A stretch of DNA of 64,000 nt, taken from NCBI RefSeq assembly GCF_013213835.1, contig NZ_JABSSU010000005.1, positions 205,294 to 269,293 of the forward strand, written 5' to 3'. The position numbers and the translations under genes are program-made. The stretch is from Winogradskyella sp. Lineage in GTDB: Bacteria > Bacteroidota > Bacteroidia > Flavobacteriales > Flavobacteriaceae. Below, in pieces: positions 3,333 to 54,243 of the stretch (positions within the stretch are counted from its first letter, which is position 1; each line of letters begins with the position of its first letter). The notes under the pieces are model-generated. The model was not told the origin of the DNA, ran no database searches, and was given only the letters and a program-made list of their open reading frames with translations.

Positions 3333-3384
3333 ACTCTCTAAGATTATATGATTTTTATATTTTTTAGTTTAGTTTCTTATTAGT

Positions 3385-4707: not shown

Positions 4708-4710
4708 AGT

Positions 4711-7875: not shown

Positions 7876-7883
7876 CTTTTCTC

Positions 7884-7903: not shown

Positions 7904-7919
7904 TGACATTCTAATTCAG

Positions 7920-9113: not shown

Positions 9114-9127
9114 TTCTTTATTTATTT

Positions 9128-9152
9128 GATGACTGAGTTACTCAAAGTCATC
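9128..9152 (-). other. Imperfect hairpin in the 81-nt murD-ftsW spacer
   Basis: gatgact-gag-tta-ctc-aa-agtcatc: a 7-bp outer stem plus a 3-bp inner stem with a 2-nt bulge. There is no flanking U-run. Confidence 0.4.
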
Positions 9153-9194
9153 CTTTTCCAATGAAGCTTCAAGAACCTCAGCCTCCATATTTAA

Positions 9195-15243: not shown

Positions 15244-15246
15244 GCT

Positions 15247-16463: not shown

Positions 16464-16914
16464 CTTCGTCTTGTCCCATTACCTCTTCAGCCAAATCGGC
16501 AAAGTCTAAAGCCGCATCATCAATTGCCTGCTCATACCTGTCTTTATCCCATATTTCAATAATATTGACCGCGGAAGCCAAAACAACCTCTTTGCTTATA
16601 CCAGAAAAGCCCATTAAATCTTTTGGAATCAACAATCTACCCGCATTATCTACTTCAACCACCTTCACACCAGCCGTAAAACGTCTAATAAAATCGTTGT
16701 TTTTCTTCTTGAAGCGATTGAGCTTATTCACCTTAGTCATTAAAACATTCCATTCTTCCATGGGATATAACTCTAGACAAGGCTGAAATACTGCTCGTTT
16801 TAAAACAAAACCATTCTGCAAAGCAGCTGACAACTGCTTTTTTAACGCTGCAGGAATCATCAATCTTCCTTTAGAATCAGCTTTACATTCATATGTTCCT
16901 ATAAATGAATTCAA
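16447..16914 (-). CDS. mraZ: Transcriptional regulator MraZ
   Basis: Two DxxxR repeats (DSKGRLMIP, DNAGRLLIP). I start at the TTG at 16914, giving (M)NSFIGTYECK and 155 aa. The ORF-track ATG at 16971 lies inside the predicted MraZ operator and adds 19 non-conserved-looking residues. Confidence 0.85.
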   Translation of the reverse strand: MNSFIGTYECKADSKGRLMIPAALKKQLSAALQNGFVLKRAVFQPCLELYPMEEWNVLMTKVNKLNRFKKKNNDFIRRFTAGVKVVEVDNAGRLLIPKDLMGFSGISKEVVLASAVNIIEIWDKDRYEQAIDDAALDFADLAEEVMGQDEDDGLS

Positions 16915-16965
16915 TGGAGTGGTTTTAGTAGCTAAACGATTTAAATCCAAAGATATTGAAAAAAT

Positions 16966-16991
16966 TACCACATTTTACCACTAACTCCCAC
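16966..16991 (-). promoter_or_regulatory. Candidate MraZ operator: three direct GTGGKA boxes with 10-bp phasing
   Basis: The minus strand reads GTGGGAgttaGTGGTAaaatGTGGTA (boxes at 16991-16986, 16981-16976 and 16971-16966). This lies about 50 nt upstream of the proposed mraZ start. It resembles the E. coli arrangement of three TGGGN repeats at 10-bp period. Confidence 0.55.
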
Positions 16992-39850: not shown

Positions 39851-41211
39851 TAAAGTTTCGGAACTGTTATAGTTCTTTGAATCCAACATCCAACCTCAAC
39901 CTTTTTTCTATCAGGGTTATTGAATATATCTGATTTTGTAGGTGCACTAGCTCTATAACTTCTAGCAGACTTCGCAGCCGCCGACTTTAATCTACCATCT
40001 ACTCTACCTGCCTTTTCAGCAGTATCAGCAGCTAACCAAAATACAGCTCTCTTACTAAAGTTATCAGTACCACAGTTATTTGCACTCTTAGCATACATTG
40101 TCGCTATTGCTAAGTATGGTGAACCATCTGATGGATTTAATTTTAAAGCTTCCATGTAGTACTGTCTAGCTCTACCAAAACTTCCTTTCTTTTTAAGATC
40201 TTGTGCTAACTTCTTATAAAGTTTCGCCTTTTTTAATGGGTCACTTTCTAAAACTAATGACTCATCTAAATATTTCTTGTCATCTGTTAATAGATATAAA
40301 TAGTATGCCGTATCTGCTGTAGGCTCTAAGCTGTACTTTTGCTTAACTAATTTTAAGAATAACGGATCTTCTTTACATCCTTTAGCATACATTCTATTCA
40401 TAGCTCTTTGTAACCAAACACCATCATTCTTCTTGTCTTCAAAACTCTTTTGGTATAACGGCACTAAAACCTCACAATTTGCCCTGTCACCAAGTTTTTT
40501 ATCCATACTTGGAACGATCTTTTCTTCAAAATTTGAAATTTTCTTTTGATAACTAGCTCTTAACTTTCCTTCTCTTTTTGTTAATGTAGCACCAGACTCT
40601 TCCTTAGCAGCAAGTTTGTTTAATTTAAGGGTAAGACCCGCTATGATTGACTCAATTAATTCATTAACGTCATCATATTTATCAAACATATCTTGTGCTG
40701 GCATCTTGCCTTCGTCGTATAAGTCTACCGCTAAAGAAAAATATGTGTATAATGCTTTAGAATTTGTAAAGTTTGCTTTATCCTTTGTAAAAGCCGCATC
40801 AAACATATTATATAATTCTTGCTTAGATTTACCTAGTTCTTTTTTATACTTATATGCAAGATTTGCTTTATCCTCTAACACCTCACCTAACTCATATTTA
40901 GAAGCAAAATGCTCTCTACTTTGATCATGAAGCAGCATTAAATCATTGATAAAAGCTATTTGATCTGCACCAGTAGAATTCTTAATCTTATCCTTTAAAA
41001 TTTTTTCTCCGTGTACATAAATGGCTCTGTTAAACTTTGGACATTTATTTCTTACAATCATCCAAGGCCCATAAGCATCATCGTACTTCTTACTTTTTAC
41101 ATAGCTATCAAAAAGTGATAAATTATTCATACACTCCTCATCTTGCTGAGCAAAACCAAAGTTAAAGCTCATAAAAAGTGTTAATAGCATTACTGTAATT
41201 CTCGTCTTCAT
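39850..41211 (-). CDS. Secreted TPR-like repeat protein
   Basis: 453 aa. Signal peptide MKTRITVMLLTLFMSFNFGFAQ. Helical-repeat composition. No catalytic motif recognised. Confidence 0.6.
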   Translation of the reverse strand: MKTRITVMLLTLFMSFNFGFAQQDEECMNNLSLFDSYVKSKKYDDAYGPWMIVRNKCPKFNRAIYVHGEKILKDKIKNSTGADQIAFINDLMLLHDQSREHFASKYELGEVLEDKANLAYKYKKELGKSKQELYNMFDAAFTKDKANFTNSKALYTYFSLAVDLYDEGKMPAQDMFDKYDDVNELIESIIAGLTLKLNKLAAKEESGATLTKREGKLRASYQKKISNFEEKIVPSMDKKLGDRANCEVLVPLYQKSFEDKKNDGVWLQRAMNRMYAKGCKEDPLFLKLVKQKYSLEPTADTAYYLYLLTDDKKYLDESLVLESDPLKKAKLYKKLAQDLKKKGSFGRARQYYMEALKLNPSDGSPYLAIATMYAKSANNCGTDNFSKRAVFWLAADTAEKAGRVDGRLKSAAAKSARSYRASAPTKSDIFNNPDRKKVEVGCWIQRTITVPKL

Positions 41212-41386
41212 TTTAATTATAATTGTTAGTTATACTTTATTTTATTTAACTAATCTAGGTTTCAAAATATTTTCATGTAGTCACCTACACAGATATCTTC
41301 AGATTATGTTACGGTTAATTATTCATGTTTTTGAATAACCACTATTGTGCAACCAAAAGATATGCCAAACTTTTAAAGATGTGTTT

Positions 41387-42121
41387 TTATTTATTGCTAG
41401 AATTAAATTCAAGAATAAAATTTAAACCCTCTAAAAGAAAATTTGCGTTGGCAAATATGCTATTTTTTAATTGGTTTCCCAAAAATTCAGTGTCACCTCC
41501 AGTTAAAATAATCTTTAAATCTGGGTATTTTAACAAATAATTATCTATTACGCCATCTAATTCTTTGGTTACTCCCATAACAACACCTGAGTGAATCGAT
41601 GATTCCGTTGAATTACCTGTAATATTTTCTGGTATTGACTTTTCTAATAAAGGAAGATTTGCAGTGAAATCATTTAGTGATTTGTAACGTAATCGAATTC
41701 CAGGTGAAATTGCACCACCTAAATATTCATTTTTGTTGGTTATAAAATCATATGTTATACACGTCCCTGCGTCTATGATCAATACATCATGATTAGGAAA
41801 TTGATTTACTGAAGCGCTAACCAAAGCTATTCTATCTACCCCAAGTGTTTTAGGTGTACTATAAGAGTTAATAAAAGGTAATTCTATTTGATGATTTAGT
41901 AATAAAACATCAATATCTTTTTGAAGTAATCTGAGATGATCATCAGGCAATTTACCTACAGAAGAAACGATTGCTGATTTTAATTTTGGAAATCTTTTTT
42001 TTAAGTGTTGGTATTGTTCTTTAAAGTGAGAAAGCTCAAAACTTTGTTTAAAATTCAATCTATTTTGACTAAAAACGGCAAATTTCACAAAAGTATTTCC
42101 AACATCAACTATAAGATTCAT
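41387..42121 (-). CDS. coaX: Type III pantothenate kinase
   Basis: 244 aa. N-terminus MNLIVDVGNT and an ASKHA fold pattern. Confidence 0.88.
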   Translation of the reverse strand: MNLIVDVGNTFVKFAVFSQNRLNFKQSFELSHFKEQYQHLKKRFPKLKSAIVSSVGKLPDDHLRLLQKDIDVLLLNHQIELPFINSYSTPKTLGVDRIALVSASVNQFPNHDVLIIDAGTCITYDFITNKNEYLGGAISPGIRLRYKSLNDFTANLPLLEKSIPENITGNSTESSIHSGVVMGVTKELDGVIDNYLLKYPDLKIILTGGDTEFLGNQLKNSIFANANFLLEGLNFILEFNSSNK

Positions 42122-42171
42122 AAGGAATTAATGAATTGCAAATTTATAAAATCAAATTTTACAATTTTATT

Positions 42172-42202
42172 TTTGCGAATAATAAAAATGAATATATATT
42201 TG
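42172..42202 (+). promoter_or_regulatory. Bacteroidetes-type sigma-A promoter for tRNA-Phe
   Basis: TTTG (42172-42175), a 19-nt spacer, then TAtaTTTG (42195-42202). This matches the -33 TTTG / -7 TAnnTTTG consensus. The box ends 21 nt before the tRNA 5' end. Confidence 0.5.
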
Positions 42203-42223
42203 CATCCGCTTATTTAAGCAACT

Positions 42224-42299
42224 GGTGCCTTAGCTCAGTTGGTAGAGCAAAGGACTGAAAATCCTTGTGTCCCTGGTTCGATTCCTGGAGGCACCACCA
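42224..42299 (+). tRNA. tRNA-Phe (anticodon GAA), CCA encoded
   Basis: GGTGCCT-TA-GCTC-AGTTGGTA-GAGC-A-AAGGA-CTGAAAA-TCCTT-GTGTC-CCTGG-TTCGATT-CCTGG-AGGCACC-A-CCA. There is one U-U mismatch in the T-stem. Confidence 0.9.
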
Positions 42300-42300
42300 T

Positions 42301-42332
42301 AAAAAATCCGGTTCAATTGAATCGGATTTTTT
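42301..42332 (+). terminator. Strong rho-independent terminator after tRNA-Phe
   Basis: aaaaaatccggttcaa-ttgaatcggatttttt: a near-perfect long palindrome followed by T6. Confidence 0.85.
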
Positions 42333-42523
42333 GGTTTTAGACATTTATACTCCATATAAAGTTTTAGTCTATACAGAAAACACACTACCTTGGTCATCAT
42401 GCAAAAAACCTCAACAGGACTAGGAAATTAACCTATGATAAATTCTAACTCGACAGCGACTAATTATCAATTTTTTTAACAATTTTTCGTAATTTTAGTT
42501 TTAAATAACTAAATCAATTAACT

Positions 42524-42883
42524 ATGACGTTCTCTAGTAAAGAAGCTTTTAGCACTCGTGAATCAATGAATCAAGACGCAATGGATGACTTAAATTTTGG
42601 TGTTATTAGAATGGATCGTAACGCTAACATTAAAGCCTATAACAAATACGAATTAAATCTCTCGGGAAATCAGCGTGAGGAAGTTTTGGGAAAAGATTTT
42701 TTTAAACAGATTGCACCATGCACAAACAACTTTATGGTTGCAGAAAAATACCTGTTAGATGATATTATTGATGAAGAAATAGATTATATTTTCACCTATC
42801 GTATGGCACCAACCAAAGTGAAATTGCGATTGCTTTCTAACCCTAATGAGAACCATCAATATCTCCTCGTTCAAAAGTCTTGA
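42524..42883 (+). CDS. pyp: Photoactive yellow protein (PYP), p-coumaric-acid-binding PAS photoreceptor
   Basis: 119 aa, colinear with remembered Halorhodospira halophila PYP. Matches include LNFGVIRMD..N.NI.AYN.YE (Tyr42/Glu46 equivalents Tyr39/Glu43), GKDFFKQIAPCT (chromophore Cys66, TGC at 42719-42721) and YRMAPTKVKL. Confidence 0.9.
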   Translation: MTFSSKEAFSTRESMNQDAMDDLNFGVIRMDRNANIKAYNKYELNLSGNQREEVLGKDFFKQIAPCTNNFMVAEKYLLDDIIDEEIDYIFTYRMAPTKVKLRLLSNPNENHQYLLVQKS

Positions 42884-42893
42884 TTTGTAGCCC

Positions 42894-44132
42894 ATGCGTA
42901 GTGAAGCAGAAAAAGAAATTCATTCTTTAATCGGGTTTTTAAACCAATGTCCATTTGCAATTATTAAAGCAGATAGTGATGGGCAAATTGTTATGCAAAA
43001 CGCCGCCGCCAGTCAGATCCTTATACCGTTTTGTCTTAGTAAGGGTTGTTCAACCTCTGATATTTATGCTATTATAAACGAAATGCATCCAGATTGGTTA
43101 GACCGTATTAAATCTTTTGATGCAGATTTTGGGAATATCATCGAAAATGAAAGAGTAGGTATTGCTTTTTCTAATCGGGAGGCAGATTTACATCTCGCTT
43201 TTTCGGTAATTAAAATTGATGAAAATACGTTTCAATACGCATTCAACGACATAAGCGCACGAGTTAAAATTGAAGAAGAACTAAACGCTCTTGCAGAATC
43301 TAAAGCGCTTGAAGCAGGTAAGCTTGAGATGGCAACGGGTGTTTTACACGATATCGGAAACGCAGTAACATCTTTTGGAACAGATGTAGCGCGACTACAA
43401 AATAAAGTTGAAGGCAAAGAAAAAGACGAACTCAAAAAACTTGAAACGTTATTTAGCAAGCAAGAAGCTGCATTTGACAAGGCCTTAGGGACTGGCAAAG
43501 GTACTGCATTAAAAAAATTCATTAATGTACTTCAGCAGAGTCTTGCACATCGTGAGACTGATGTAGCAACAATAATAAAGAAACTATATCAAACAACTAG
43601 CCATATTCAAGACATCCTTAATATTCAACGCAACTACGTAAAGGGCAAAGTTAAAGGCGAAAGAGCAAAGTTTAAGCTAAGTTCTATTATTGATGACGCA
43701 TTAGCCATACAGGAAAGAGGACTTCTAAAAAGAGATGTCTTAATAACAAAGGATATTCCTTTAAACAACCCATTAATTAGCGGTGATAAAACAAAGCTTA
43801 TTCAAGTTCTTATCAATGCTTTTAAAAATAGTGCAGAAGCTTTTGATGAAGTTAAAGAAACAAGAGAGAAAACTTTACATATAGATTTAAGCATAGATAA
43901 AGCCTCTAATATGGTCATACTTAGTATTGAAGACAACGCTATAGGTTTTGAACCCAGCTTATCTGACAAATTATTAGAAAAAGGAAATACTTTTAAAAAG
44001 ACTGGAACTGGATTTGGACTTTACAATTGCAAACAAATTATAGAAACCCATCAAGGTGAAATTAGTATTACTAGCAATGGCCCTAATCAAGGCGCAAAAT
44101 TTACAATTAAAATACCTTACACAAACCAATGA
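42894..44132 (+). CDS. Soluble PAS-domain sensor histidine kinase
   Basis: 412 aa with no TM helix. N-terminal PAS-like fold (about aa 10-125, ending FNDISARVKIEEEL). H-box GVLHDIGNAV, N-box INAFKNSAEA, G-boxes EDNAIGF and GTGFGLYNCKQI. It starts 10 nt after the pyp stop, and its stop overlaps the next ATG (ATGA). Confidence 0.9.
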   Translation: MRSEAEKEIHSLIGFLNQCPFAIIKADSDGQIVMQNAAASQILIPFCLSKGCSTSDIYAIINEMHPDWLDRIKSFDADFGNIIENERVGIAFSNREADLHLAFSVIKIDENTFQYAFNDISARVKIEEELNALAESKALEAGKLEMATGVLHDIGNAVTSFGTDVARLQNKVEGKEKDELKKLETLFSKQEAAFDKALGTGKGTALKKFINVLQQSLAHRETDVATIIKKLYQTTSHIQDILNIQRNYVKGKVKGERAKFKLSSIIDDALAIQERGLLKRDVLITKDIPLNNPLISGDKTKLIQVLINAFKNSAEAFDEVKETREKTLHIDLSIDKASNMVILSIEDNAIGFEPSLSDKLLEKGNTFKKTGTGFGLYNCKQIIETHQGEISITSNGPNQGAKFTIKIPYTNQ

Positions 44133-45703
44133 CAATGAAGATAAAAAGTAGATTATTAATAATTGACGACGAAGAAATTGTAAGAGATAGTATAAGAGAA
44201 ATCTTAACCCCTGAAGAAGAAGACAATTTTTCCTTAGATCTTGGCGAAGCTTCAGCTGATCTTTTTGGCGACACACAAGAGGTTATCGAAAGAAATCCTA
44301 GAAGTTTACACCCACATTTTGACATTGTCGAAGCTAAAAATGGTGAGGAAGGTTTGCAACGCGTTAAAGAAAGTCTTGAGGCTAACGAACCGTTTAATGT
44401 TATTTTTATTGATATGCGAATGCCCGGCTGGGATGGCTTAACTACTTGTGTAGAAATACGTAAAATTGACCCGAAAGCACAAATTTCTTTTATCACTGCA
44501 TTTACTGACCGTAGTATTGATGAAATCATAAAATTAGCTGGTGGAGATGTGGGTTACTTAAGCAAACCCTTTATTCCAGAAGAAATATTACAATTAGCAA
44601 CAAAAAGTCTTTACGATTGGGCGAGATTAACCAATTTAGAAAAATTGCTAGAAATTATTGGTGAAATTGGTCTTGGTACAACACAACTAAAAACGCTTCT
44701 AACTAATATTTTACATCAAATTGCAGATTATATAGGTTCTGACTATGCTGTTTTAGGTAAATTAGAAGCAGATGGTTTCGAAGAGATTTCTGTTATGGGC
44801 ATTGGCAAAGAACGTATTAAGATAGACGTTCTTTCAGAAAAAATAGATTTAAAGGCAATACACGATATTCAATATACTGAAGGTCTATTAGTTTGCCCTC
44901 TCGAGCAATACTATATTCTGGCCGTACCTTCTAAGCCCGAACTATTCAACCAAGAAAAAATCTATTTATTACGACTATTTGTTGAAAATGCAGTGAGAGC
45001 TATCCACAATTCTGAATTAAACGAAGAACTATTAAAACGAGAGAAGCTTTCTGCAGTTGGACAAGCGATAAGTATGGTAATGCATGATATTAGAAACCCC
45101 ATAGCTCACCTCACTAACATAGGGCAGTTAATTCAAATGAACCCTGGCGATAGTAGTCAAAATGAGACAATGGCTCAATTGATCCTAAAATCTACCGACA
45201 ATGCACTAAATATAATTACAGATGTCTTAGATTTTACTAAGAATGCATCAATCCATAAAAAGGAAATAACCCTTAAAAATTGGTTAGATGAAATTATAAG
45301 TCGTCTTAAAGGACGTGACGGTTTTGAAACTGTAGATATCAATATCACAGGCATGCAAGATGCTACAATAGAATTAGATCCTAAGAAAATGGATCGGGTT
45401 ATTATTAACCTGGTTAATAATTCTGTTGAGGCATTAGTAGATAACAAAACAGAAGCGCCAAGAGTTGAGATAAATATTTCTGAAGATGATGCCAACCTTA
45501 TTCTTAAAATCCGAGACAATGGCCCAGGTATTCCTGAAGAAATAAAAGCTAAATTATTTGAAGCATTCGTAACTAAAAACAAAGTTGATGGCACTGGCTT
45601 AGGCTTAGCTATTGTAAAACAGATCATAGACGCCCATAAAGGCTTTATTAAATTAAATGATCCTGAATTGGGAGCTGAGTTTGAAATTGGTTTACCAAAA
45701 TAA
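44129..45703 (+). CDS. Hybrid REC-GAF-histidine kinase
   Basis: 524 aa. The receiver (LLIIDDEE, FIDMRMPGWDG, LSKPF) carries an acidic insertion of about 35 aa. GAF-like middle domain. HisKA H-box MHDIRNPIAHL. HATPase_c motifs (NLVNNSVEA, RDNGPGI, GTGLGLAIVK). Confidence 0.9.
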   Translation: MTMKIKSRLLIIDDEEIVRDSIREILTPEEEDNFSLDLGEASADLFGDTQEVIERNPRSLHPHFDIVEAKNGEEGLQRVKESLEANEPFNVIFIDMRMPGWDGLTTCVEIRKIDPKAQISFITAFTDRSIDEIIKLAGGDVGYLSKPFIPEEILQLATKSLYDWARLTNLEKLLEIIGEIGLGTTQLKTLLTNILHQIADYIGSDYAVLGKLEADGFEEISVMGIGKERIKIDVLSEKIDLKAIHDIQYTEGLLVCPLEQYYILAVPSKPELFNQEKIYLLRLFVENAVRAIHNSELNEELLKREKLSAVGQAISMVMHDIRNPIAHLTNIGQLIQMNPGDSSQNETMAQLILKSTDNALNIITDVLDFTKNASIHKKEITLKNWLDEIISRLKGRDGFETVDINITGMQDATIELDPKKMDRVIINLVNNSVEALVDNKTEAPRVEINISEDDANLILKIRDNGPGIPEEIKAKLFEAFVTKNKVDGTGLGLAIVKQIIDAHKGFIKLNDPELGAEFEIGLPK

Positions 45704-46804
45704 ATGAATGAAATTCTAGATTTAGAAAGATTAAAAGTACTCATTAACGAAATTTTCTGGGAAACCGTTCCAAGTTGCAGAAACATTCCTTTTGAAGGAG
45801 ATTTAAGAAAGCACTTAAATATAGACTCTTTAGACGCTCTAGATTTAGCCTCAGAATTTCATTTTAGGTTCGATATGCTCTCTGAATCTAAAGAACAGTA
45901 TTTACTACAGTATGATACTGCCGAAGATTGGTTAAATCAAATTTATATTTCTGCCAATAACCCCGAAAAAAGATTTGGTTTCTTTTCTTCCGGCTCAACA
46001 GGACAACCAACACAGGTTTGGCACGATAAGCAGCAACTCATTGAAGAGCGTGACTTTTGGCTTCAAATTACCAAAGCAAAAGGCGTTATCTGTTTAGTGC
46101 CTGTGAGACATATCTACGGTTTTATTTGGGGATTAATGTTAGGTACTAAATTAGAACGGTCCAAATTTTTAAATATGAAGGACTGGCACAAAACGTCTGA
46201 ATACTCAAATGATGATGATCTTATTATTGGTCATCCTACCGCTTGGAAACATATCAATTTAACATTTTCACATAAATACGCGGTGAGCTCAACCGCACCA
46301 ATTGGTAAATCATTAATTGAAGAACTCAAGCTCGACAATATTAAGGGTTTAAATATTTATGGTAGTACGGAAACTGGAGCTATCGGCTATCAATACTGGG
46401 ATAATGATTATTTTAAATTATTACCATATTGGCAAACAGAAAGTGACAAACTAACTAGAGATAACTTTACCTTTGAAATTCCTGACCACATAGAATGGCT
46501 CAGCTCAAGTACATTCCAATTAAATGGAAGAAAAGACAAGCTTATTCAAATAGGAGGTGAAAATGTTTCTCTTATTGAAGTCGAAGCAAATCTCAAAAAA
46601 ATCTCTGGAGTTAAAAATGTTTGGGTGAAACCGTATCATAGTCATTGGGGAATTAGATTATTTAGCTATTTTCAATTACAACCAGAACAAAAAATAAATA
46701 CCTTTGAAGACAAGCTTATTGAACATTTAAAGAGCTTACCATCAAAACTTAAACCACGTAAATGGGAATTTAGCTACGACCCATTTGATAAATTGAATAT
46801 ATAA
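45704..46804 (+). CDS. pcl: Minimal adenylate-forming ligase, PYP-activation 4-coumarate ligase type, with ACP-like N-terminus
   Basis: 366 aa. ANL motifs SSGSTGQPT (aa 95-103), YGSTETG and GRKDKLIQIGGENVSLIEVE. The N-terminal 80 aa carry a carrier-protein-like LNIDSLDALDL motif. The ATG immediately follows the upstream stop, and the gene's own stop overlaps the tal ATG. Confidence 0.75.
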   Translation: MNEILDLERLKVLINEIFWETVPSCRNIPFEGDLRKHLNIDSLDALDLASEFHFRFDMLSESKEQYLLQYDTAEDWLNQIYISANNPEKRFGFFSSGSTGQPTQVWHDKQQLIEERDFWLQITKAKGVICLVPVRHIYGFIWGLMLGTKLERSKFLNMKDWHKTSEYSNDDDLIIGHPTAWKHINLTFSHKYAVSSTAPIGKSLIEELKLDNIKGLNIYGSTETGAIGYQYWDNDYFKLLPYWQTESDKLTRDNFTFEIPDHIEWLSSSTFQLNGRKDKLIQIGGENVSLIEVEANLKKISGVKNVWVKPYHSHWGIRLFSYFQLQPEQKINTFEDKLIEHLKSLPSKLKPRKWEFSYDPFDKLNI

Positions 46805-48366
46805 TGTCACAAAAAGCATCTGACATTCCGTTTTCTAAATCTTGGTCTATCGAAAATTTTATTGCTATTGGTCGTAAGCAAATTATGCCTTCAATCTCAA
46901 ACTCAGATTTTGAAAAGATTAACCAATCTCACCACACCTTAAAGAACCTCATAAAACAAGACAAATGGATTTATGGTGTAAGTAGCGGTTTTGGACCGTT
47001 AGCTTCAGAAGACGCTTCCAAGAACTCAGAAAGACAACAACGCTTAATTTATCATCTTGCAACTGGTGTAGGACCAAAACTAGATTTAGAAATTGTACGC
47101 ATGATATTCGCCTTGCGCCTTAAACAACTTGCCCAAGGTTATTCGGGAATAAACCCTGAAAGTTTCAAAATTCTTTTTAATTCCTTTAATGCAGACTTAT
47201 TACCTAAAATTCCTTCATTAGGTTCTGTTGGGGCAAGTGGTGATCTTACACCATTAGCACATTTAGCTTTAGGATTAGCAGGAGAAAGTGATTTCTACCT
47301 TAACGGTAAAAAACACTCAGCATCAGATTTTAAAAAAATAAACACTGTACAAAAAATTAAATGGTCAGATAAAGATGCTTTAGCCTTTGTAAACGGTACA
47401 GCCGCCATGACATCTATTGCGACCAAAAACTTTTACGAAACAGTCACTCTATTTCGATTAAGCACGCAACTTGCCTTTAGCTATGGTGAATGTCTAGGTG
47501 CTTACACTGAAGCTTGGCATCCAAAACTAGCAGAGTTACATCCACAAAAAGGGCATTTAGAACTTTCAGAATGGTTGTATAATAAAAGTGAAAAAGGTTG
47601 GTTTCAGAATAATCAATCTCTACAATCTGCATTCAAAACCAAATGGCCACAAGACCAATATTCTATCCGTTGTATTCCTCAACTTTTAGAAGCAGTTAGG
47701 GATCAATTAAAGCAGATTGAAGATTGCCTTACAATTGAAATTAATAGTATAAGCGACAATCCAAATTTCTATTCAGAAAATCAAGAAGTACTTCATGGTG
47801 GTAATTTTAACGGACAGCATTTATCATTTACTTCAGACCAATTAAATCTTCAAATCACCTATCTAGGCATTTATGCCGAAAAACGCATCAGCACCTTGTG
47901 CGATCCTAAATTAAATATAGGCTTACCACCATTTTTAAAATCTGGTACTACTGGTGAAAACAGTGGATTCATGGGCGCTCAAGTTACGGCTACAGCACTC
48001 TGCGCAGAATTAAAGAGTTTATATCGACCATTAAGCCTAGAGACACAGAGCACCAATGGACAAAACCAAGACATGGTGAGCATGGGAACTTCATCAACCA
48101 ATAGAGGCCAAAAATTGCTCTCTATCCTTAAATCTTTAATCAGTATTGAATGCATGGTAAATATTGAAGCCTTAAGACTTCGTAAAGAGCAACTACAACG
48201 AAATGCTTCAAATCAAAATGAAGCCTGGCTAGAATATTTCAGCCCTTATTTTCCACAATTAACTGAAGATCGTCCACTAAGTAAAGAGATAGAATACCTT
48301 TCAAACAATATCATCACTATTTGCGAAACGTTCAAAGAATTGCCATTAAAGCAGAAAAGTCATTAA
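46804..48366 (+). CDS. tal: Tyrosine ammonia-lyase (MIO-dependent aromatic ammonia-lyase)
   Basis: 520 aa. MIO triad in GSVGASGDL (Ala144-Ser145-Gly146, 47233-47241). The selectivity switch His84-Leu85 in IYHLATGVG matches TALs (HALs have Ser-His, PALs have Phe-Leu). No hutU/hutI genes are nearby. Confidence 0.8.
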   Translation: MSQKASDIPFSKSWSIENFIAIGRKQIMPSISNSDFEKINQSHHTLKNLIKQDKWIYGVSSGFGPLASEDASKNSERQQRLIYHLATGVGPKLDLEIVRMIFALRLKQLAQGYSGINPESFKILFNSFNADLLPKIPSLGSVGASGDLTPLAHLALGLAGESDFYLNGKKHSASDFKKINTVQKIKWSDKDALAFVNGTAAMTSIATKNFYETVTLFRLSTQLAFSYGECLGAYTEAWHPKLAELHPQKGHLELSEWLYNKSEKGWFQNNQSLQSAFKTKWPQDQYSIRCIPQLLEAVRDQLKQIEDCLTIEINSISDNPNFYSENQEVLHGGNFNGQHLSFTSDQLNLQITYLGIYAEKRISTLCDPKLNIGLPPFLKSGTTGENSGFMGAQVTATALCAELKSLYRPLSLETQSTNGQNQDMVSMGTSSTNRGQKLLSILKSLISIECMVNIEALRLRKEQLQRNASNQNEAWLEYFSPYFPQLTEDRPLSKEIEYLSNNIITICETFKELPLKQKSH

Positions 48367-48620
48367 ATCACATTTCTTTAACAAAGACCTTTCATTTAAA
48401 AGCTATATGACTGCAATTTTTCAATAAAAAAAATCTGCTTGAACATCATACAGAAAATAGTCTTAAGTATTGTTTTTTAGATATTTAAGTCAGATTTAAA
48501 TTCAATGACTTTAAGCTGTAATCTACACAACAATTACCAATAGAAAACTAATCGTCTAACTTAGATTTTTAATCATTATCACATTTTTAAGAAAAAGATT
48601 GAATAGTTGACTAGAAAATA

Positions 48621-50300
48621 ATGAAAAACCTAAATAAATATAGCAAAACTGTCACACAAGACCCAACACAACCTGCAGCACAAGCAATGCTTCACGGTAT
48701 TGGATTAACACGTGAAGATTTTGAAAAACCCATTGTAGGAATCGCAAGTACCGGATACGAAGGGAACCCTTGTAACATGCACCTCAACGATTTAGCTAAA
48801 CTTGTAAAAGACGGCACAAAAAATGAAGATGTAATAGGCTTAATTTTCAACACTATTGGTGTTAGTGACGGAATTTCAATGGGAACACCTGGAATGCGGT
48901 ACTCACTACCATCTAGAGATGTTATTGCCGACTCAATGGAAACTGTTGTGCAAGCTATGAGTTATGATGGTCTAGTTACTGTTGTAGGTTGCGACAAAAA
49001 TATGCCTGGTGCCTTAATGGCTATGATTCGTTTGAATCGTCCATCCATTTTAGTATACGGCGGCACAATAGATTCTGGTTGCCATAATGGTAAAAAACTA
49101 GATGTTGTTTCTGCTTTTGAAGCTTGGGGAAGCAAAGTTGCCGGAACCATGGAACAAGAAGAGTTTGAATGCATCGTTAAAAAAGCAATTCCTGGTGCAG
49201 GCGCTTGTGGTGGTATGTACACTGCAAACACTATGGCATCATCAATAGAAGCTTTAGGTATGGCACTACCTTTTAACTCATCAAATCCTGCGATGAGTCA
49301 AGCAAAGCAAGACGAAGCTGTAAAAGCGGGTGAAGCCATGCGTGTTTTGCTAGAAAAAGACATTAAACCTTCAGATATCATAACAAGGAAGTCTTTAGAA
49401 AACGCCATACGTCTAATTACAATTTTAGGTGGCTCAACCAATGCTGTTCTTCACTTTTTAGCTATTGCGAGAGCAGCAAATATCGATTTCACTTTAGAAG
49501 ATTTTCAAAAAGTAAGTGATGACACACCATTTTTAGCAGACTTAAAACCTAGCGGTAAGTATCTAATGGAAGACGTACACAAAGTTGGTGGAATTCCGGC
49601 GGTGCTTAAATACCTTTTAAACAAAGGACTATTGTATGGTGATTGTTTAACCGTAACTGGTAAAACACTTGCAGAAAACCTTGCTGATGTAAAAGACCTA
49701 ACTGAAGGGCAAGACGTTATTAAACCACTAGAACAACCTATAAAAACCACAGGACACCTTAGAATGCTTTACGGCAACCTTGCTACTGAAGGTAGTGTAG
49801 CAAAAATTACTGGTAAAGAAGGGTTAAAGTTTACAGGAAAAGCAAAAGTATTTGAAGGCGAATACGATGCTAATGACGGCATTAGAGAAGGTAAAGTAAA
49901 GAAAGGTGACGTTGTAGTTATTAGATACGAAGGCCCAAAAGGTGGCCCAGGAATGCCAGAAATGTTAAAACCAACAGCTGCAATAATGGGTGCTGGCTTA
50001 GGAAAAGATGTAGCGCTAATTACAGATGGACGTTTCTCTGGCGGAACACACGGTTTTGTTGTAGGACACATTACACCAGAAGCACAAGAAGGCGGAACAA
50101 TAGCATTAGTTAAAGATGGCGATACAATCACTATTGATGCTGAAACCAACACAATTTCTCTAGAAGTGTCTGATGAAGAACTAAAAGAAAGAAAAGCAGA
50201 ATGGCAAGCGCCAGATTTAAAAGTAAAACGTGGTGTACTTTACAAATACGCAAGATCTGTATCATCAGCATCTAAAGGCTGTGTAACGGACGAATTCTAA
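48621..50300 (+). CDS. ilvD: Dihydroxy-acid dehydratase
   Basis: 559 aa. IlvD/Edd family with the GCDKNMPG motif. Confidence 0.95.
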
Positions 50301-50307
50301 AGATGTC

Positions 50308-50329
50308 ACTCTGAGCGCAGTCGAAGAGT
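50308..50329 (+). repeat. Short intergenic stem-loop element (loop GAGCGCAGTCGA, stem ACTCT/AGAGT), copy 2 of 3
   Basis: actct-GAGCGCAGTCGA-agagt in the 45-nt ilvD-ilvB spacer. Confidence 0.6.
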
Positions 50330-50345
50330 CTTTAAAAGATAAAAT

Positions 50346-52082
50346 ATGAAAGAAACTCAAACTATAGAATCTACAAATAAGGTGACAAAAACTACAGAAC
50401 GCATTACTGGTAGCCAAGCCATTGTAAGATGCCTCATTGAAGAAGGCGTAAAAGTACTTTACGGTTATCCTGGTGGTGCAATTATGCCAGTATATGATGA
50501 GCTATATAAATATCAAGATAAAATTCATCATGTCTTAACACGTCACGAGCAAGGTGCAACGCATGCTGCTCAAGGCTATGCAAGAATCTCAAACGGAGTT
50601 GGTGTTGCTATGGCGACTTCTGGTCCAGGCGCAACAAACCTCATTACAGGTATTGCAGACGCACAGATAGATTCTACACCAATGGTTTGTATTACAGGTC
50701 AAGTACCTTCTCAACTTCTGGGAAGCGATGCGTTTCAAGAAACAGATATCGTTGGTATTTCTACGCCAATCACTAAATGGAATCATCAAATTACAAAAGC
50801 TTCTGAAATCCCAGAAGTCATTGCTAAAGCATTTTATATTGCTAAAAGTGGTCGTCCAGGTCCAGTTTTGGTAGATATCACTAAAGATGCTCAATTTGAA
50901 GAATTCGATTTTTCCTATAAAAAATGTAAAGGTGTTCGCAGTTACAAAGCGGTTCCAAAAACAGACGCTTCTAAAATTGAAGAAGCTGCAAAACTAATTA
51001 ATGCTGCTAAAAAACCATTAGTTGTTTGGGGACAAGGTGTGATTCTTGGTGAAGCTGAAGAAGAATTTAAAGCTGTAATTGAGAAAGCTGGTTTACCGGC
51101 TGCATGGACAATTCTTGGTGCTTCAGCAATACCTACTTCTCACCCATTAAACGTTGGTATGGTAGGTATGCACGGTAATTACGCACCAAATGTTTTAACC
51201 AACGAATGCGACGTATTAATAGCTATCGGAATGCGTTTTGATGACCGAGTAACTGGTAGTCTAAACACTTACGCCAAGCAAGCCAAAGTGATTCATTTTG
51301 AAATAGACCCAGCTGAAGTTGATAAAAATGTAAAGACTGATGTTGCGGTTTTAGGTGATGCCAAAGAAAGTCTATCACAATTATTGCCATTATTAAATGA
51401 AAACACACATGAAGATTGGCATCAAAAATTTAAAGATTTATATAAAATTGAATACGATAAAGTCATAAAAGATGACCTTCACCCAACAAAAGACGGTTTA
51501 ACTATGGGTGAAGTTTTAAAAGAAATAAATACTTACACAAAAGGTGAAGCTGCAATTGTTACAGACGTTGGTCAACATCAAATGATTGCTTGTCGCTATG
51601 CGGAATTCAATACTTCTAAGAGCAATATTACTTCTGGTGGATTAGGAACTATGGGCTTTGGCTTACCAGCCGCAATTGGCGCAAAAATGGCTGCACCAGA
51701 ACGCGAAGTGGTTTCAATTAGTGGTGATGGCGGCTATCAAATGACCATTCAAGAATTAGGCACTATTTTTCAACAAAGAGTTGCTGTAAAAGTCGTGGTA
51801 CTTAACAATGATTTTCTTGGCATGGTAAGACAATGGCAACAACTATTTTTTGATAAGCGTTACGCTTCAACTGAAATGACTAATCCAGATTTTGTAACTA
51901 TTGCCAAAGGGTATTACATCAATGCAAAACGGGTTACAAAACGCGAAGAATTAGCCGATGCAGTTAAGAAAATGATAGAAAGTAAAGAACCTTACTTCTT
52001 AGAAGTTTGTGTAGAAAAAGAAGATAATGTATTCCCGATGGTACCTTCTGGTGCTTCGGTATCAGACATAAGACTAGAATAA
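50346..52082 (+). CDS. ilvB: Acetolactate synthase large subunit
   Basis: 578 aa. ThDP enzyme with the ThDP motif SGDGGYQMTIQELGT...VLNN. Confidence 0.95.
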   Translation: MKETQTIESTNKVTKTTERITGSQAIVRCLIEEGVKVLYGYPGGAIMPVYDELYKYQDKIHHVLTRHEQGATHAAQGYARISNGVGVAMATSGPGATNLITGIADAQIDSTPMVCITGQVPSQLLGSDAFQETDIVGISTPITKWNHQITKASEIPEVIAKAFYIAKSGRPGPVLVDITKDAQFEEFDFSYKKCKGVRSYKAVPKTDASKIEEAAKLINAAKKPLVVWGQGVILGEAEEEFKAVIEKAGLPAAWTILGASAIPTSHPLNVGMVGMHGNYAPNVLTNECDVLIAIGMRFDDRVTGSLNTYAKQAKVIHFEIDPAEVDKNVKTDVAVLGDAKESLSQLLPLLNENTHEDWHQKFKDLYKIEYDKVIKDDLHPTKDGLTMGEVLKEINTYTKGEAAIVTDVGQHQMIACRYAEFNTSKSNITSGGLGTMGFGLPAAIGAKMAAPEREVVSISGDGGYQMTIQELGTIFQQRVAVKVVVLNNDFLGMVRQWQQLFFDKRYASTEMTNPDFVTIAKGYYINAKRVTKREELADAVKKMIESKEPYFLEVCVEKEDNVFPMVPSGASVSDIRLE

Positions 52083-52136
52083 GTCCATAATGGACATTAA
52101 AAATATCGCATTGAGATGTCAAGCTAAGCAAGCCTG

Positions 52137-52156
52137 TGCTGAGCGTAGTCGAAGCA
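52137..52156 (+). repeat. Short intergenic stem-loop element (loop GAGCGTAGTCGA, stem TGCT/AGCA), copy 3 of 3
   Basis: tgct-GAGCGTAGTCGA-agca in the 115-nt ilvB-ilvN spacer. Confidence 0.6.
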
Positions 52157-52197
52157 TCGAAGCTTAATCAAAATGTAAAAGCATATTTAATATCAAA

Positions 52198-52728
52198 ATG
52201 AGCGAAGAAATAAAACAATTTACAGTATCCGTTTATACTGAAAACAATATTGGTTTACTCAATAGAATATCAGCGATATTCCAAAGAAGACACATCAATA
52301 TTGAAAGTATAAATTCTTCTGTTTCTGAGATTGAAGGTGTTTCAAGATTTACAATTGTTGTAAATATTACCGAATCTCAAATGAAAAAATTCATAGGTCA
52401 GATAGAGAAGCAAATCGAAGTGATTAAGGCATTCTATCACACCGAAGAAGAAACGATTTATCAAGAATCTTGCATGTTCAAAATAAAGTCAGATTTATTA
52501 TTTGAAGAACGTCAAATTCAAAATATCATCAAAGAAAGTGGTGCAAGAATCGTTACCGTAAACAGAGAGTTTTTTGTTTTGGAAAAATCAGGACGAAAAG
52601 AAGAAATAGAATTATTACATAGAGAATTAAGCGCCTTTGGCATCATGCAATTTACGCGTTCAGGAAGAATTGCGGTGACTAAAGACGAAATGAAAATATC
52701 ATCAATGCTAGAAGCATTTCAACACTAA
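52198..52728 (+). CDS. ilvN: Acetolactate synthase small (regulatory) subunit
   Basis: 176 aa. N-terminal ACT domain (VSVYTENNIGLLNRISAIFQRRHINIES). Confidence 0.9.
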   Translation: MSEEIKQFTVSVYTENNIGLLNRISAIFQRRHINIESINSSVSEIEGVSRFTIVVNITESQMKKFIGQIEKQIEVIKAFYHTEEETIYQESCMFKIKSDLLFEERQIQNIIKESGARIVTVNREFFVLEKSGRKEEIELLHRELSAFGIMQFTRSGRIAVTKDEMKISSMLEAFQH

Positions 52729-52743
52729 AAAAGAAAGAAGAAA

Positions 52744-54243
52744 ATGTCAAATTATTTTAACACATTATCATTAAGAGAACAATTAGGACAGTTAGGAAAG
52801 TGTCGTTTTATGGATGCTTCAGAATTTGAAGATGGCGTTGATTCGCTTTTAGGCAAAAAGATTGTCATTGTAGGTTGTGGTGCTCAAGGGCTTAACCAAG
52901 GTTTAAACATGAGAGATTCTGGTTTAGATATTTCCTACGCATTAAGACAAGCTGCCATTGACGAACAACGTGCTTCATATAAAAATGCAACATCAAACGA
53001 TTTTAATATTGGTACTTATGAAGAATTAATTCCAACAGCTGATTTGGTATTGAATCTTACACCAGACAAGCAACACACTAACGTTGTAGCTTCTGTTATG
53101 CCATTAATGAAACAAGGCGCTACATTAAGTTATTCTCATGGTTTTAATATTGTAGAAGAAGGCACAAAAATTCGTGAAGACATTACAGTAATTATGGTGG
53201 CACCAAAATGTCCTGGAACTGAAGTTAGAGAGGAATACAAACGTGGATTTGGTGTACCAACTTTAATTGCTGTACATCCAGAAAACGACCCAGAAAACAA
53301 AGGTTGGGCACAAGCAAAAGCTTATGCCGTTGCCACTGGTGGACATAGAGCGGGCGTACTAGAATCATCTTTTATTGCTGAAGTAAAAAGTGATTTAATG
53401 GGTGAACAAACTATTCTTTGTGGTTTGCTTCAAACTGGTGCGATTCTATCGTTTGACAAAATGGTAGCCGAAGGTATTGAAGCTGGTTATGCTGCAAAAT
53501 TAATTCAGTTTGGTTGGGAAACGATTACTGAAGCTTTAAAACATGGTGGTATCACTAATATGATGGATAGATTATCTAATCCTGCAAAAATTAAAGCGTT
53601 TGAATTGTCTGAAGAATTAAAGGGTATTATGCGTCCATTATTCCAAAAACATATGGACGATATCATCTCTGGTTATTTCTCAAAAACTATGATGGAAGAT
53701 TGGGCAAATGACGATGTTAATCTTTTAAAATGGCGTGCTGCTACAGGAGAAACAGCTTTTGAAAAAACAGCCTTAACAACAGACCATATTACAGAACAAG
53801 AATATTTTGACCACGGTGTATTGTTAGTAGCATTTGTAAAATCTGGTGTTGAGTTAGCTTTCGAAACTATGGTAAGCGCAGGTATTATTGAAGATTCTGC
53901 TTATTATGAGTCATTGCACGAATTACCATTGATTGCAAACACTATTGCAAGAAAAAAATTATTTGAAATGAACCGAGTTATTTCTGACACTGCGGAATAT
54001 GGTTGTTACTTATTTGACCATGCATGTAAGCCATTATTAGAAGACTTTATGAAAACTGTAGATACATCAATTATTGGCAAGCCTTTTGCTTCGATACATG
54101 GTGTTGATAATATTGAATTGATAGCCGTAAATGATGCGATTAGAAATCATCCTATTGAAGCAGTTGGTAAACGCCTAAGAGCTGCCATGACTGCGATGAA
54201 AACTATAAAATCTGAAGAAGTTAAAGAAACAGCTTTAGCTTAA
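52744..54243 (+). CDS. ilvC: Ketol-acid reductoisomerase, long class II form
   Basis: 499 aa. Long stretches match remembered E. coli IlvC ([73 protein letters not shown]). Confidence 0.95.

Follow-up and report, generated by a model that had tools for sequence, protein, structure and literature searches.

Within the 64-kb stretch of a marine Winogradskyella genome which was analysed as a whole (hereafter the window, 64,000 nucleotides), an open reading frame check reveals five genes on the same strand spanning positions 42524-48366 (Table 1). The junctions between them amount, in gene order, to +10, -4, 0 and -1 nt, which exactly matches the five-gene, one-strand layout given in an earlier note on this DNA. 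Judging from this spacing, the five genes are counted here as one putative operon. Pattern searches, including the region upstream of pyp (42333-42523), yielded no convincing promoter for it, and a corresponding search of the locus identified no terminator.

In the window the cassette sits between a tRNA-Phe gene and ilvD. Just 5' of the tRNA gene a pattern search places a match to the Bacteroidetes-type promoter consensus TTTG-N19-TAnnTTTG (42172-42202). The palindrome, which is bordered by an A-run and a T-run and bounds the pyp promoter region upstream, probably acts as terminator for the tRNA gene. Three out of four metagenome contigs carrying an identical pyp begin inside or just 5' of tRNA-Phe, corresponding to about 42183-42266 of the window.

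Table 1. Features of the locus, with predicted functions and positions in the window.
Feature	Position	Strand	Size or description
pyp, photoactive yellow protein	42524-42883	+	119 aa
HK1, soluble PAS-like histidine kinase	42894-44132	+	412 aa
REC-HK2, receiver-histidine kinase	44129-45703	+	524 aa
pCL-like adenylate-forming ligase	45704-46804	+	366 aa
tyrosine ammonia-lyase	46804-48366	+	520 aa
tRNA-Phe(GAA)	42224-42299	+	ARAGORN; Rfam tRNA 70.3 bits; left neighbour of cassette
perfect palindrome, 16+16 nt	42301-42332	.	inverted repeat I7, 94% complementary, 0 nt between arms

The photoactive yellow protein

The 119-aa product of the first gene matches TIGR02373, the model of photoactive yellow protein (PYP), over the model's full length (E = 1e-24), its score of 86.9 being, however, below the curated NCBIfam equivalog cut-off of 143. 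Alignment with solved PYP structures of the PDB covers residues 2-105 (E = 6e-17) and places the chromophore cysteine Cys66 (TGC, 42719-42721) as well as Tyr39 (42638-42640) and Glu43 (42650-42652) at the positions of Cys69, Tyr42 and Glu46 of Halorhodospira halophila PYP. Indeed, the pocket residues Tyr42, Glu46, Cys69, Tyr94, Phe96, Tyr98 and Met100 are all matched in this alignment. The blocks GKDFF (42689-42703) and PTKVK (42809-42823) are likewise present, and every residue which the earlier note had named, including the His84-Leu85 pair of the lyase, is found at the codon assigned to it there. In one alignment comprising 27 relatives and three published PYPs of other groups the Ala-Pro-Cys motif is invariant. 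The AF2 model (pLDDT 85.7) resembles 2phy with TM 0.89 and an rmsd of 2.1 Å. When it is compared with the PDB, the top 39 matches are all PYP or PYP-derived, and the TM values of generic PAS domains do not exceed about 0.65. Family model, alignment with solved PYPs and specific fold match thus agree with the earlier proposal that this is a PYP, as opposed to a generic PAS protein with unaligned pocket residues, and on these grounds we assign it as a true, if predicted, photoactive yellow protein.

The protein is of the single-domain type and belongs to the 'APCTNNFMVAEKY' subgroup, clade C type, in which three to four residues are missing from the helix following the chromophore loop and Tyr replaces Trp119. 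Its sub-cut-off score agrees with what Xing et al. 2022 report for clade C, two entries of which, that of Haliangium and a further one, bear the flag 'photo_yellow (< cutoff)'. Both the PYP and the ligase, scoring below their NCBIfam cut-offs, are divergent members of their families. The positions of Thr50 and Arg52 are occupied by Ser47 and Asn49, for which reason colour and kinetics may differ from those of textbook PYP. We found no experimental characterisation (biochemistry, spectrum or photocycle) of any flavobacterial or clade-C PYP in the literature.

Genes for the predicted chromophore supply

The best family of the short ligase is the PYP-activation 4-coumarate ligase TIGR02372 (E = 1e-45; score 156, below the curated cut-off of 334.7), and the protein also matches AMP-binding of Pfam. 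Since the adenylation motifs are in place, namely the P-loop SSGSTGQPT (residues 95-103), YGSTE (219-223) and the hinge motif NGRKDKLIQIGGENV (274-288), its earlier designation as a ligase of the PYP-activation type is upheld at that sub-cut-off score. The N-terminal domain (residues ~1-90) is acyl-carrier-like: its profile matches almost exclusively acyl carrier proteins in the PDB, Pfam PP-binding is matched in six of eight orthologues, and Ser42 (45827-45829) is invariant in the orthologue alignment. A paper describing such a domain in this ligase was not found in the literature.

The last gene product matches Lyase_aromatic with E = 2e-124, and its best solved relative is the tyrosine ammonia-lyase of Rhodobacter sphaeroides (RsTAL, 2o6y; E = 2e-84). 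Ala144-Ser145-Gly146 (47233-47241), which would form the MIO group, aligns with the MIO position of RsTAL, and the selectivity switch His84-Leu85 (CAT CTT, 47053-47058) with His89-Leu90, as anticipated for a MIO lyase bearing the His-Leu switch for tyrosine. Tyr57, Tyr286 and Arg289 are present as well.

The two kinases

HK1 consists of a PAS-like domain (residues ~1-120), a long helix, a DHp domain with His152 (43347-43349) and a HATPase_c domain (E = 1.6e-18). In its AF2 model (pLDDT 82) the N-terminal part comprises five strands plus helices, and the fold as modelled is most similar to that of the LOV-histidine kinase YF1 (4gcz, E = 1.8e-21). A Pfam search matched no family, PAS and LOV included, to the PAS-like domain, and no flavin-binding Cys motif is evident on reading the HK1 sequence. 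Across 64 homologues H152, D153, G155 and N156 are invariant, and G22, G30, N36, P45 and G80 of the PAS-like domain are conserved.

REC-HK2, whose reading frame shares its first 4 nt with the end of HK1, carries a receiver (Response_reg, E = 1e-16) with Asp13-Asp14, the phospho-acceptor Asp95 (44411-44413) and Lys146, followed by HisKA (E = 8e-8) with His319 (45083-45085) and HATPase_c (E = 6e-23). The middle region (~155-305) is unassigned: it gave no more than a faint GAF_2 signal (E = 0.03), and a PDB search returned no match. In both kinases the catalytic motifs are all intact and membrane segments are absent. We propose HK1 as the putative direct partner of PYP and REC-HK2 as the putative second tier of a relay. 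A response regulator with an output domain is encoded neither in or near the operon nor elsewhere in the 64-kb window; hence the system is not strictly self-contained, as it had been called.

Distribution and prior description of the cassette

Gene neighbourhoods, whose tabulation had been suggested along with the PYP model search reported above, were compared for Flavobacteriaceae, Chitinophagaceae, Sphingobacteriia, Cytophagales and one Spirochaetaceae MAG. At every PYP locus which is long enough (21 across Bacteroidota and the spirochaete MAG) pyp, HK1 and REC-HK2 are adjacent and in the same order, while the flanking genes are unrelated and differ across three phyla. The identities of PYP, HK1 and REC-HK2 to those of the window fall roughly in parallel, from 75/73/74% (L005) via 53/44/54% (L023) to 42/34/42% (L015), which fits inheritance as one unit. 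This recurring order in unrelated genomes, together with the PYP matches, argues against chance. The five genes thus appear to constitute a compact, horizontally movable cassette, which is rare in Flavobacteriia.

The PYP of the window is 100% identical to the NCBI entry 'photoactive yellow protein [Winogradskyella sp.]' and is contained as NRB60168.1 in the set of 984 PYPs of Dohmen et al., J Bacteriol 2025 (PMC12826048). The supplement of that study already tabulates the order pyp-HK-HK-ligase-lyase for Polaribacter litorisediminis, and Bacteroidota PYPs have been in the literature since 2022. The novelty asserted in the earlier note is therefore lost for the protein, which NCBI had named, and for the gene order, but holds in so far as no characterised flavobacterial PYP is on record; the operon has been described, yet it is not common in Flavobacteriia. 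The cassette is real, a predicted blue-light sensor system and an uncharacterised member of an already catalogued kind.

Proposed mechanism and alternative explanations

Gene identities, catalytic and pocket residues, predicted folds and conserved linkage are established; chromophore binding, photocycle, protein contact and phosphotransfer are predicted. We consider it probable that the locus is a movable blue-light cassette in which a PYP with its own chromophore supply signals via HK1 to REC-HK2. According to their families, the lyase would deaminate tyrosine to p-coumarate, the short ligase would use ATP to activate p-coumarate, whose activated acyl group would then become thioester-linked to Cys66. 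By analogy with H. halophila PYP, blue light would isomerise the chromophore, which Glu43 would protonate, whereupon the partly unfolded protein would represent the signalling state. For the subsequent steps the conserved gene order is our guide: the signalling state may act on the N-terminal PAS-like domain of HK1 and alter autophosphorylation of His152, the phosphate may pass to Asp95 of the REC-HK2 receiver, the receiver may gate the second kinase (His319), and this kinase may finally phosphorylate a response regulator encoded elsewhere.

The pair of HK1 and REC-HK2 also occurs without pyp within 4-5 kb, namely in Pedobacter africanus (L020), Pontibacter sp. G13 (L021) and a marine contig (L025). 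Hence the two kinases can do without PYP and might constitute a separate two-kinase system of Bacteroidota which merely co-travels with a genuine photoreceptor signalling elsewhere, the more so as the conserved PAS-like sensor domain of HK1 could bind a signal of its own. We nevertheless regard this as unlikely, since for every subgroup PYP examined the next gene is HK1 and the one after it REC-HK2, provided that the contig is long enough and irrespective of the flanks, and since such strict adjacency and translational coupling, with gaps in the window not exceeding 10 nt, are difficult to account for if the genes have no functional connection. Both the adjacency to pyp and the pyp-free pairs agree with two kinases that accept interchangeable stand-alone sensors.

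A similarly low probability is given to a PYP which binds p-coumarate but operates as a UV-A/violet sensor with protonated chromophore, or as a very slow-cycling integrator, instead of as a classical 446-nm receptor. Besides the shortened helix and the Tyr at position 119, the exchanged tuning residues point in this direction: those studied PYPs which have Ser50 absorb further to the blue (maxima at 432-434 nm) and recover very slowly, and Rhodobacter PYPs display forms at 360-375 nm (PMC12826048). The residues setting the deprotonated chromophore state, Tyr39, Glu43, Cys66 and the remaining pocket, are intact, however, and this reading is in any case a variant of the blue-light cassette proposed above rather than an alternative to it.

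That lyase and ligase make a flexirubin-type, other aryl-polyene or phenylpropanoid pigment next to a generic, non-photoactive PAS protein is very improbable and close to refuted, for although flexirubin synthesis in flavobacteria commonly begins with TAL and 4-coumarate ligase (PMC3992019) and the FlxA model matches the lyase at 319 bits, this score is far under the cut-off of 700 and exceeded by generic HAL models, no polyketide or dialkylresorcinol genes are found within the 64-kb window, the ligase matches the PYP-activation family and not the standard 4CL families, and the matches of the small protein are PYP-specific.

Comparison with known systems

HK1 shares with YF1 the layout of PAS, coiled-coil, DHp and CA, a likeness which at 16-18% identity is architectural only, and REC-HK2 resembles receiver-kinase hybrids of the LvrB type (Leptospira LvrB, PDB 8vc9; NF047466, 83.7 bits). 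The sole experimental precedent for a PYP acting on a kinase is Ppr of Rhodospirillum centenum, in which a histidine kinase, and through it a two-component output, is under the control of the PYP domain (PMC12826048). In Ppr, however, PYP, bacteriophytochrome and kinase are fused in one polypeptide, whereas in the window PYP is encoded by a gene of its own, a PAS-like domain is already part of the first kinase and a second receiver-kinase follows.

In the founding system, pyp-pcl-tal of H. halophila (PMC12826048), a single-domain PYP is, as in the window, followed on the same strand by ligase and lyase, which provide p-coumarate and activate it, and both PYPs are predicted to adopt the same fold (TM 0.89). 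Yet the two share only about 31% identity, the PYP of the window belonging to another clade, with Asn in place of Arg52, Ser in place of Thr50 and three residues deleted. Moreover, the two kinase genes between pyp and ligase are absent from the H. halophila operon, whose PYP output is phototaxis.

The Hoch_5523 operon of Haliangium ochraceum (PMC12826048) contains the same triad of PYP (129 aa), HK (423 aa) and REC-HK (524 aa), with proteins almost equal in size to those of the window, its PYP being assigned to clade C and flagged below cut-off by Xing et al. 2022, in line with the PYP of the window. Like the cassette described here, it is a predicted system; it differs in its phylum, Myxococcota, and in the lack of both ligase and lyase. 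The closest counterpart is the K8354_02615 operon of Polaribacter litorisediminis (PMC12826048), listed there without discussion or testing as part of a predicted operon extending to 10 genes. Its site, between a GIY-YIG gene and AAA_15/DUF3883 genes, differs from that in the window. Nevertheless, all five genes recur there in unchanged order, with tight junctions and with product sizes near those of the window (PYP 119 aa, HK 411, hybrid HK/RR 522, AMP-binding 366, ammonia-lyase 522), PYP and HK1 being 67% and 71% identical, respectively, to their counterparts in Winogradskyella.

Organisation and genomic setting of the cassette

The five same-strand ORFs which the earlier note had combined into one operon are all present on the forward strand, and recalculating the junctions between them returned the claimed values of +10, -4, 0 and -1 nt. 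They encode a photoactive yellow protein (PYP), a soluble PAS-like histidine kinase (HK1), a receiver-histidine kinase (REC-HK2), a short ligase and an aromatic ammonia-lyase. Since a dcw cluster (mraZ, mraW, a PBP, murE, mraY, murD, ftsW, murG, murC, ftsQ, ftsA, ftsZ) and an ilv block lie in the same window, the cassette sits in the core chromosome; peptidases and transporters are also encoded there.

Features of the cassette and its surroundings (window coordinates)
Feature	Position	Strand	Remark
dcw cell-division/cell-wall cluster	1389-16971	-	ordinary, complete
Type III pantothenate-kinase-like gene	left of cassette, adjoins tRNA-Phe		assigned by sequence reading
tRNA-Phe(GAA)	42224-42299		224 nt upstream of pyp
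Perfect 16+16 nt palindrome	42301-42332		follows tRNA-Phe
pyp	42524-42883	+	119 aa
HK1	42894-44132	+	412 aa
REC-HK2	44129-45703	+	524 aa
Ligase	45704-46804	+	366 aa
Lyase	46804-48366	+	520 aa
ilvD-ilvB-ilvN-ilvC block	48621-54243	+	flanks cassette on right

We do not call the cassette a tRNA-integrated island, a reading we tried and rejected, because no direct repeat matching the 3' end of tRNA-Phe, nor any other att-like repeat bracketing the cassette, was found and because its GC content does not differ from that of the flanks. In three independent metagenome assemblies, the contig with the identical locus ends at or just before tRNA-Phe. Upstream of this tRNA, the sole Rfam match within 41000-49000, lies one of the window's only two full matches to the Bacteroidetes promoter consensus (42172-42202); for the cassette, the scan with this consensus yielded that site alone. 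A sigma-70 promoter scan returned sites no more numerous than in shuffled sequence, and no forward-strand terminator was found downstream of the lyase gene.

Identity of the PYP

The NCBIfam model of PYP, TIGR02373, matches the 119-aa protein with 86.9 bits (E = 1.1e-24, model positions 5-123 of 124), which is below the curated equivalog cut-off of 143.05 bits, and the Pfam scan of the protein gave no match. It has 33 matches to solved structures, none of them outside PYP itself, the PYP domain of Ppr and tags derived from PYP (best E 6e-17). In the alignment to the solved PYPs, Cys66 of the APCT motif, whose TGC codon is read at 42719-42721, coincides with Cys69 of the Halorhodospira halophila protein, Tyr39 with Tyr42 and Glu43 with Glu46; these two hydrogen-bond partners and the GKDFF and PTKVK blocks lie precisely where the earlier note had placed them. 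Ala64, Pro65 and Cys66 are invariant in 30 aligned sequences. The pocket residues Ile28, Phe59, Ala64, Pro65 and Phe90 are identical to Ile31, Phe62, Ala67, Pro68 and Phe96 of H. halophila PYP, with Val66 of the latter replaced by Ile63. Tyr94, Phe96, Tyr98 and Met100 are likewise conserved, and Thr50 and Arg52 are exchanged for Ser47 and Asn49, respectively.

An AlphaFold2 model calculated with 27 relatives (pLDDT 85.7, pTM 0.80) superimposes on 2phy with a TM score of 0.89 and an rmsd of 2.1 Å. The best 39 PDB fold matches of this model are all PYP or PYP-derived, followed by ordinary PAS domains at a TM score of about 0.65; the protein thus presents the single PAS fold of about 125 residues with an N-terminal helical cap, nearer to PYP than to other PAS domains, by which the family is defined. 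As its structure matches are confined to PYP, and in view of its fold and pocket residues, it does not score as a generic PAS domain, the outcome which by the terms of the earlier note would have overturned its claim; PYP-specific matches to HMM, structures and fold uphold the identification. We are highly confident that the window encodes a genuine chromophore-binding PYP whose chromophore is supplied from within the operon.

The score below the TIGR02373 cut-off follows from the membership of the protein in a divergent subgroup whose features, the motif APCTNNFMVAEKY and a subsequent deletion of 3-4 residues, are common to the PYPs of Spirosoma, Mucilaginibacter, Burkholderiales and Haliangium. 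In Xing et al. (2022; PMC9664959), the Haliangium PYP belongs to clade C, and two clade-C entries (Haliangium and one other) carry the flag 'photo_yellow (< cutoff)'; the clade is described there as poorly characterised. We read the shortfall as that of a model trained on other clades and not as counter-evidence to PYP membership. The 12 PYPs studied so far include no clade-C and no flavobacterial member.

Six relatives of the window PYP within this subgroup (P0020, P0022, P0023, P0026, P0027 and P0028) retain the cysteine and the tyrosine and carry Asn, Ile or Leu in place of the proton donor Glu46. Replacement of Glu46 by Gln has been recorded in 2.6% of the sequences surveyed by Dohmen et al. 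(J Bacteriol 2025; PMC12826048), and the substitutions seen in our alignment exceed that Glu-to-Gln variation; the photochemistry of these relatives, if any, should differ. Two proteins from the representative search are of unusual architecture. P0150 (1174 aa) has four PYP domains in tandem which look genuine, each showing YN..E and VAPCT, and P0149 (4799 aa) contains 31 PAS-like stretches similar to PYP which lack the Ala-Pro-Cys motif.

Chromophore enzymes

Pfam Lyase_aromatic is the only lyase model which the lyase passes (E = 2e-124). Its scores against NCBIfam models remain below the respective cut-offs (HAL 375 versus 524, hutH 365 versus 539). The best relative of solved structure is the tyrosine ammonia-lyase (TAL) of Rhodobacter sphaeroides (RsTAL; 2o6y, E = 2e-84), with histidine ammonia-lyases (HAL) at about 1e-66. 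His84-Leu85, whose codons CAT CTT are read at 47053-47058, aligns to His89-Leu90 of RsTAL, the substrate-selectivity position, at which PAL carries Phe-Leu and HAL Ser-His. Ala144-Ser145-Gly146 (47233-47241) falls on the MIO position of 2o6y. With both motifs aligned to RsTAL, the description of this protein as a MIO ammonia-lyase with the His-Leu switch of TALs proves well founded. A role of the lyase in flexirubin formation was rejected, since the flexirubin FlxA TAL model (NF053541) gives 319.5 bits at a cut-off of 700 and no polyketide genes are found in the 64-kb window.

The ligase is best matched by TIGR02372, the family of PYP-activation 4-coumarate ligases, with 156.1 bits (E = 1e-45, positions 46-354 of 386), below the curated cut-off of 334.7 bits, the runner-up family reaching 43 bits; a phmmer search against the PDB gave no match. 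It contains the adenylation motifs, i.e. the P-loop SSGSTGQPT (95-103), YGSTE (219-223) and the hinge GRKDxxIQIGGxNV. Members of TIGR02372 are short ANL enzymes (about 370-390 aa) which possess these motifs and are encoded beside pyp, and the 366-aa ligase conforms to this description. With TIGR02372 as best family and the motifs in place, we concur with its assignment as a short ligase of the PYP-activation type. It is found in the pyp cassette in nine of the 16 clustered loci, the window included, and additionally in loci L022, L023 and L026-L028.

Residues 1-90 of the ligase (45704-45970) appear to constitute an acyl-carrier-like domain where ANL enzymes usually have a long N-terminal region. 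The domain becomes visible only in profile and orthologue scans, as a single-sequence Pfam scan of the N-terminus gave no match. Carrier domains are recognised by a four-helix fold with the phosphopantetheine serine in (D/S)S(L/I/M). A profile of the first 90 or so residues retrieves almost only acyl carrier proteins from the PDB (best E = 0.002), hhalign pairs the N-terminus with E. coli ACP at a probability of 63%, and PF00550 (PP-binding) matches six of eight ligase orthologues (best E = 7e-4), the window's own sequence giving no match. Ser42 (45827-45829), located in the motif HLNIDSLDALDL and invariant in nine orthologues, falls on the phosphopantetheine serine of the DSL motif in the acyl-carrier alignments. 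It is conceivable that this domain mediates delivery of the chromophore, and our literature search found no paper mentioning an acyl-carrier-like domain of a PYP-type ligase.

The kinase pair and its distribution

In HK1, Pfam recognises HATPase_c (E = 1.6e-18). Neither HisKA nor any Pfam match to the first 145 residues was obtained, and the DHp sub-region gave no meaningful match either; His152 in VLHDIGN is invariant. No membrane segment was found, and the NCBI name 'HAMP domain-containing' is without Pfam support. The AlphaFold2 model (pLDDT 82) comprises a five-stranded PAS-like domain (residues ~1-120) which passes via a single long helix into the DHp and catalytic domains, and its best PDB fold match is the engineered LOV-histidine kinase YF1. 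A search of a set of 5.8 billion proteins with residues 1-146 alone returned nothing, whereas full-length HK1 gave matches. REC-HK2 combines a full receiver (Asp13-Asp14, Asp95, Lys146) with HisKA (His319) and HATPase_c. From Pfam, its middle region yields solely GAF_2 at E = 0.03, and a profile of this region found nothing in the PDB, so that it is left unassigned. Both kinases possess the two-component set of a phospho-acceptor His in a DHp helix and a HATPase_c domain with N and G boxes. A response regulator carrying an output domain is not encoded in the window.

When one genome per species was scanned, 15 related loci emerged, to which exact-protein look-ups added six. An HK1 orthologue directly follows pyp in all 21, with a REC-HK2 orthologue next wherever the contig continues. 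These loci belong to Flavobacteriaceae MAGs, Polaribacter, Roseivirga, Sediminibacterium, Chitinophagaceae, Mucilaginibacter flavus, Sphingobacteriia, Cytophagales and one Spirochaetaceae MAG. In most of them the ligase comes after the kinases, and among the loci compared the lyase is restricted to the marine flavobacterial group and Roseivirga. As the flanking genes differ and are unrelated between the lineages, the cassette moves as a unit. Lon protease, ribosomal protein S1, CoA-transferase subunits and peroxiredoxin were considered as parts of the system and discarded, being unconserved between lineages; from their ORF translations we read these neighbours as housekeeping genes.

Comparison of window 42560-52806 with L016, an uncultured Flavobacteriaceae MAG, gives a mosaic picture. 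The ilvD proteins are 98.7% identical, and the DNA from about 46100 onward is about 84-97% identical, mostly above 90%. From pyp through HK1 and REC-HK2 into the 5' portion of the ligase gene identity is only 65-80%, and upstream of pyp there is no homology at all. A recombination breakpoint seems to fall within the ligase gene at around 45900-46100, and from the mosaic we conclude that close relatives have exchanged the portion comprising sensor and kinases.

In four loci of the Mesohalobacter type (L005, L006, L026 and L027) the lyase gene is directly followed, in convergent orientation on the opposite strand, by a gene for a giant multi-PAS protein with a receiver (1416 to over 2100 aa), a possible downstream partner in these genomes. 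The window has no such gene.

Probable signal output of the PYP

We consider it rather probable that the PYP signals through HK1 and REC-HK2, which we read as a relay of two kinases into which PYP plugs. Alternatively, the kinases might be independent passengers of the cassette. In favour of this, the pair occurs without a nearby pyp in L020 (Pedobacter africanus), L021 (Pontibacter sp. G13) and L025 (a marine metagenome contig); on the other side stands the constant succession of pyp and HK1 in the 21 loci. In two of the three pyp-less loci the same-strand gene just upstream of the pair codes for a protein of thioredoxin fold, with 369 aa in L020 and 132 aa in L025. These genes hint at interchangeable upstream inputs, and two such cases could be due to chance.

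Returning to PYP signalling through the pair, one extended scheme links the relay to chromophore delivery by the ligase. According to it, HK1 and REC-HK2 would form a general Bacteroidota relay for exchangeable stand-alone sensors encoded just upstream, PYP being one of them. Beyond producing free p-coumaroyl-CoA, the ligase would hold the activated chromophore on a phosphopantetheine arm at Ser42 of its own carrier-like domain, from where it would be handed over to the PYP cysteine by transthioesterification. We regard this combined scheme as unlikely. If true, the plug-in relay would name the direct signalling partner of a free-standing PYP.

Significance and relation to known systems

PYP has served as a model photoreceptor since the 1980s, and other light responses, e.g. 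proteorhodopsin, are known from marine flavobacteria, so that an additional blue-light input in these organisms would be of ecological interest. There is hardly a cleaner test case for a PYP partner than this cassette, which comprises PYP, two soluble kinases and both chromophore enzymes within 5.8 kb and is ready to be expressed in E. coli; a spectrum and photocycle of its PYP would be the first from clade C and from Flavobacteriia. The abstract of Dohmen et al. (PMC12826048) names the signalling partner of free-standing PYP as a gap in knowledge. As far as searched, the texts of that paper and of PMC9664959 do not recognise the PAS-kinase/receiver-kinase pair as the invariant core of this PYP subgroup, do not mention its existence without PYP and contain no experiment on the clade of the window PYP.

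The novelty proposed in the earlier note does not stand: the window PYP is 100% identical to the NCBI entry 'MAG: photoactive yellow protein [Winogradskyella sp.]', and the gene order has been tabulated in PMC12826048. As NRB60168.1, the protein is among the 984 PYPs of that survey, and PYP was found in 26 Bacteroidota genomes in PMC9664959. The cassette is therefore a catalogued, uncharacterised case, for which the functional reading of the earlier note is essentially right. In the main text of PMC12826048, PYP is proposed to feed two-component systems; of the 113 pyp operons considered there, 17 contain kinase genes, 42 the ligase and seven the lyase. Kinase genes are said there to lie preferentially upstream of pyp. 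The supplementary table gives the three-gene operon of Haliangium ochraceum (pyp, HK, REC-HK), which lies on the complement strand, in genome order; read in the direction of transcription, pyp is the first gene, and the same holds for all loci studied here. Judging from this row, the upstream preference may partly reflect strand bookkeeping.

The worth of the cassette is that of an entry point for experiments on the signalling partner of PYP. It is not a new type of system, because a general association of PYP with kinase genes has already been published, as has this gene order. The operon of Polaribacter litorisediminis, as tabulated in the supplement of PMC12826048, consists of PYP (119), a histidine kinase (411), a hybrid kinase/response regulator (522), an AMP-binding protein (366) and an aromatic ammonia-lyase (522), identical to the window in gene order and nearly so in gene sizes.
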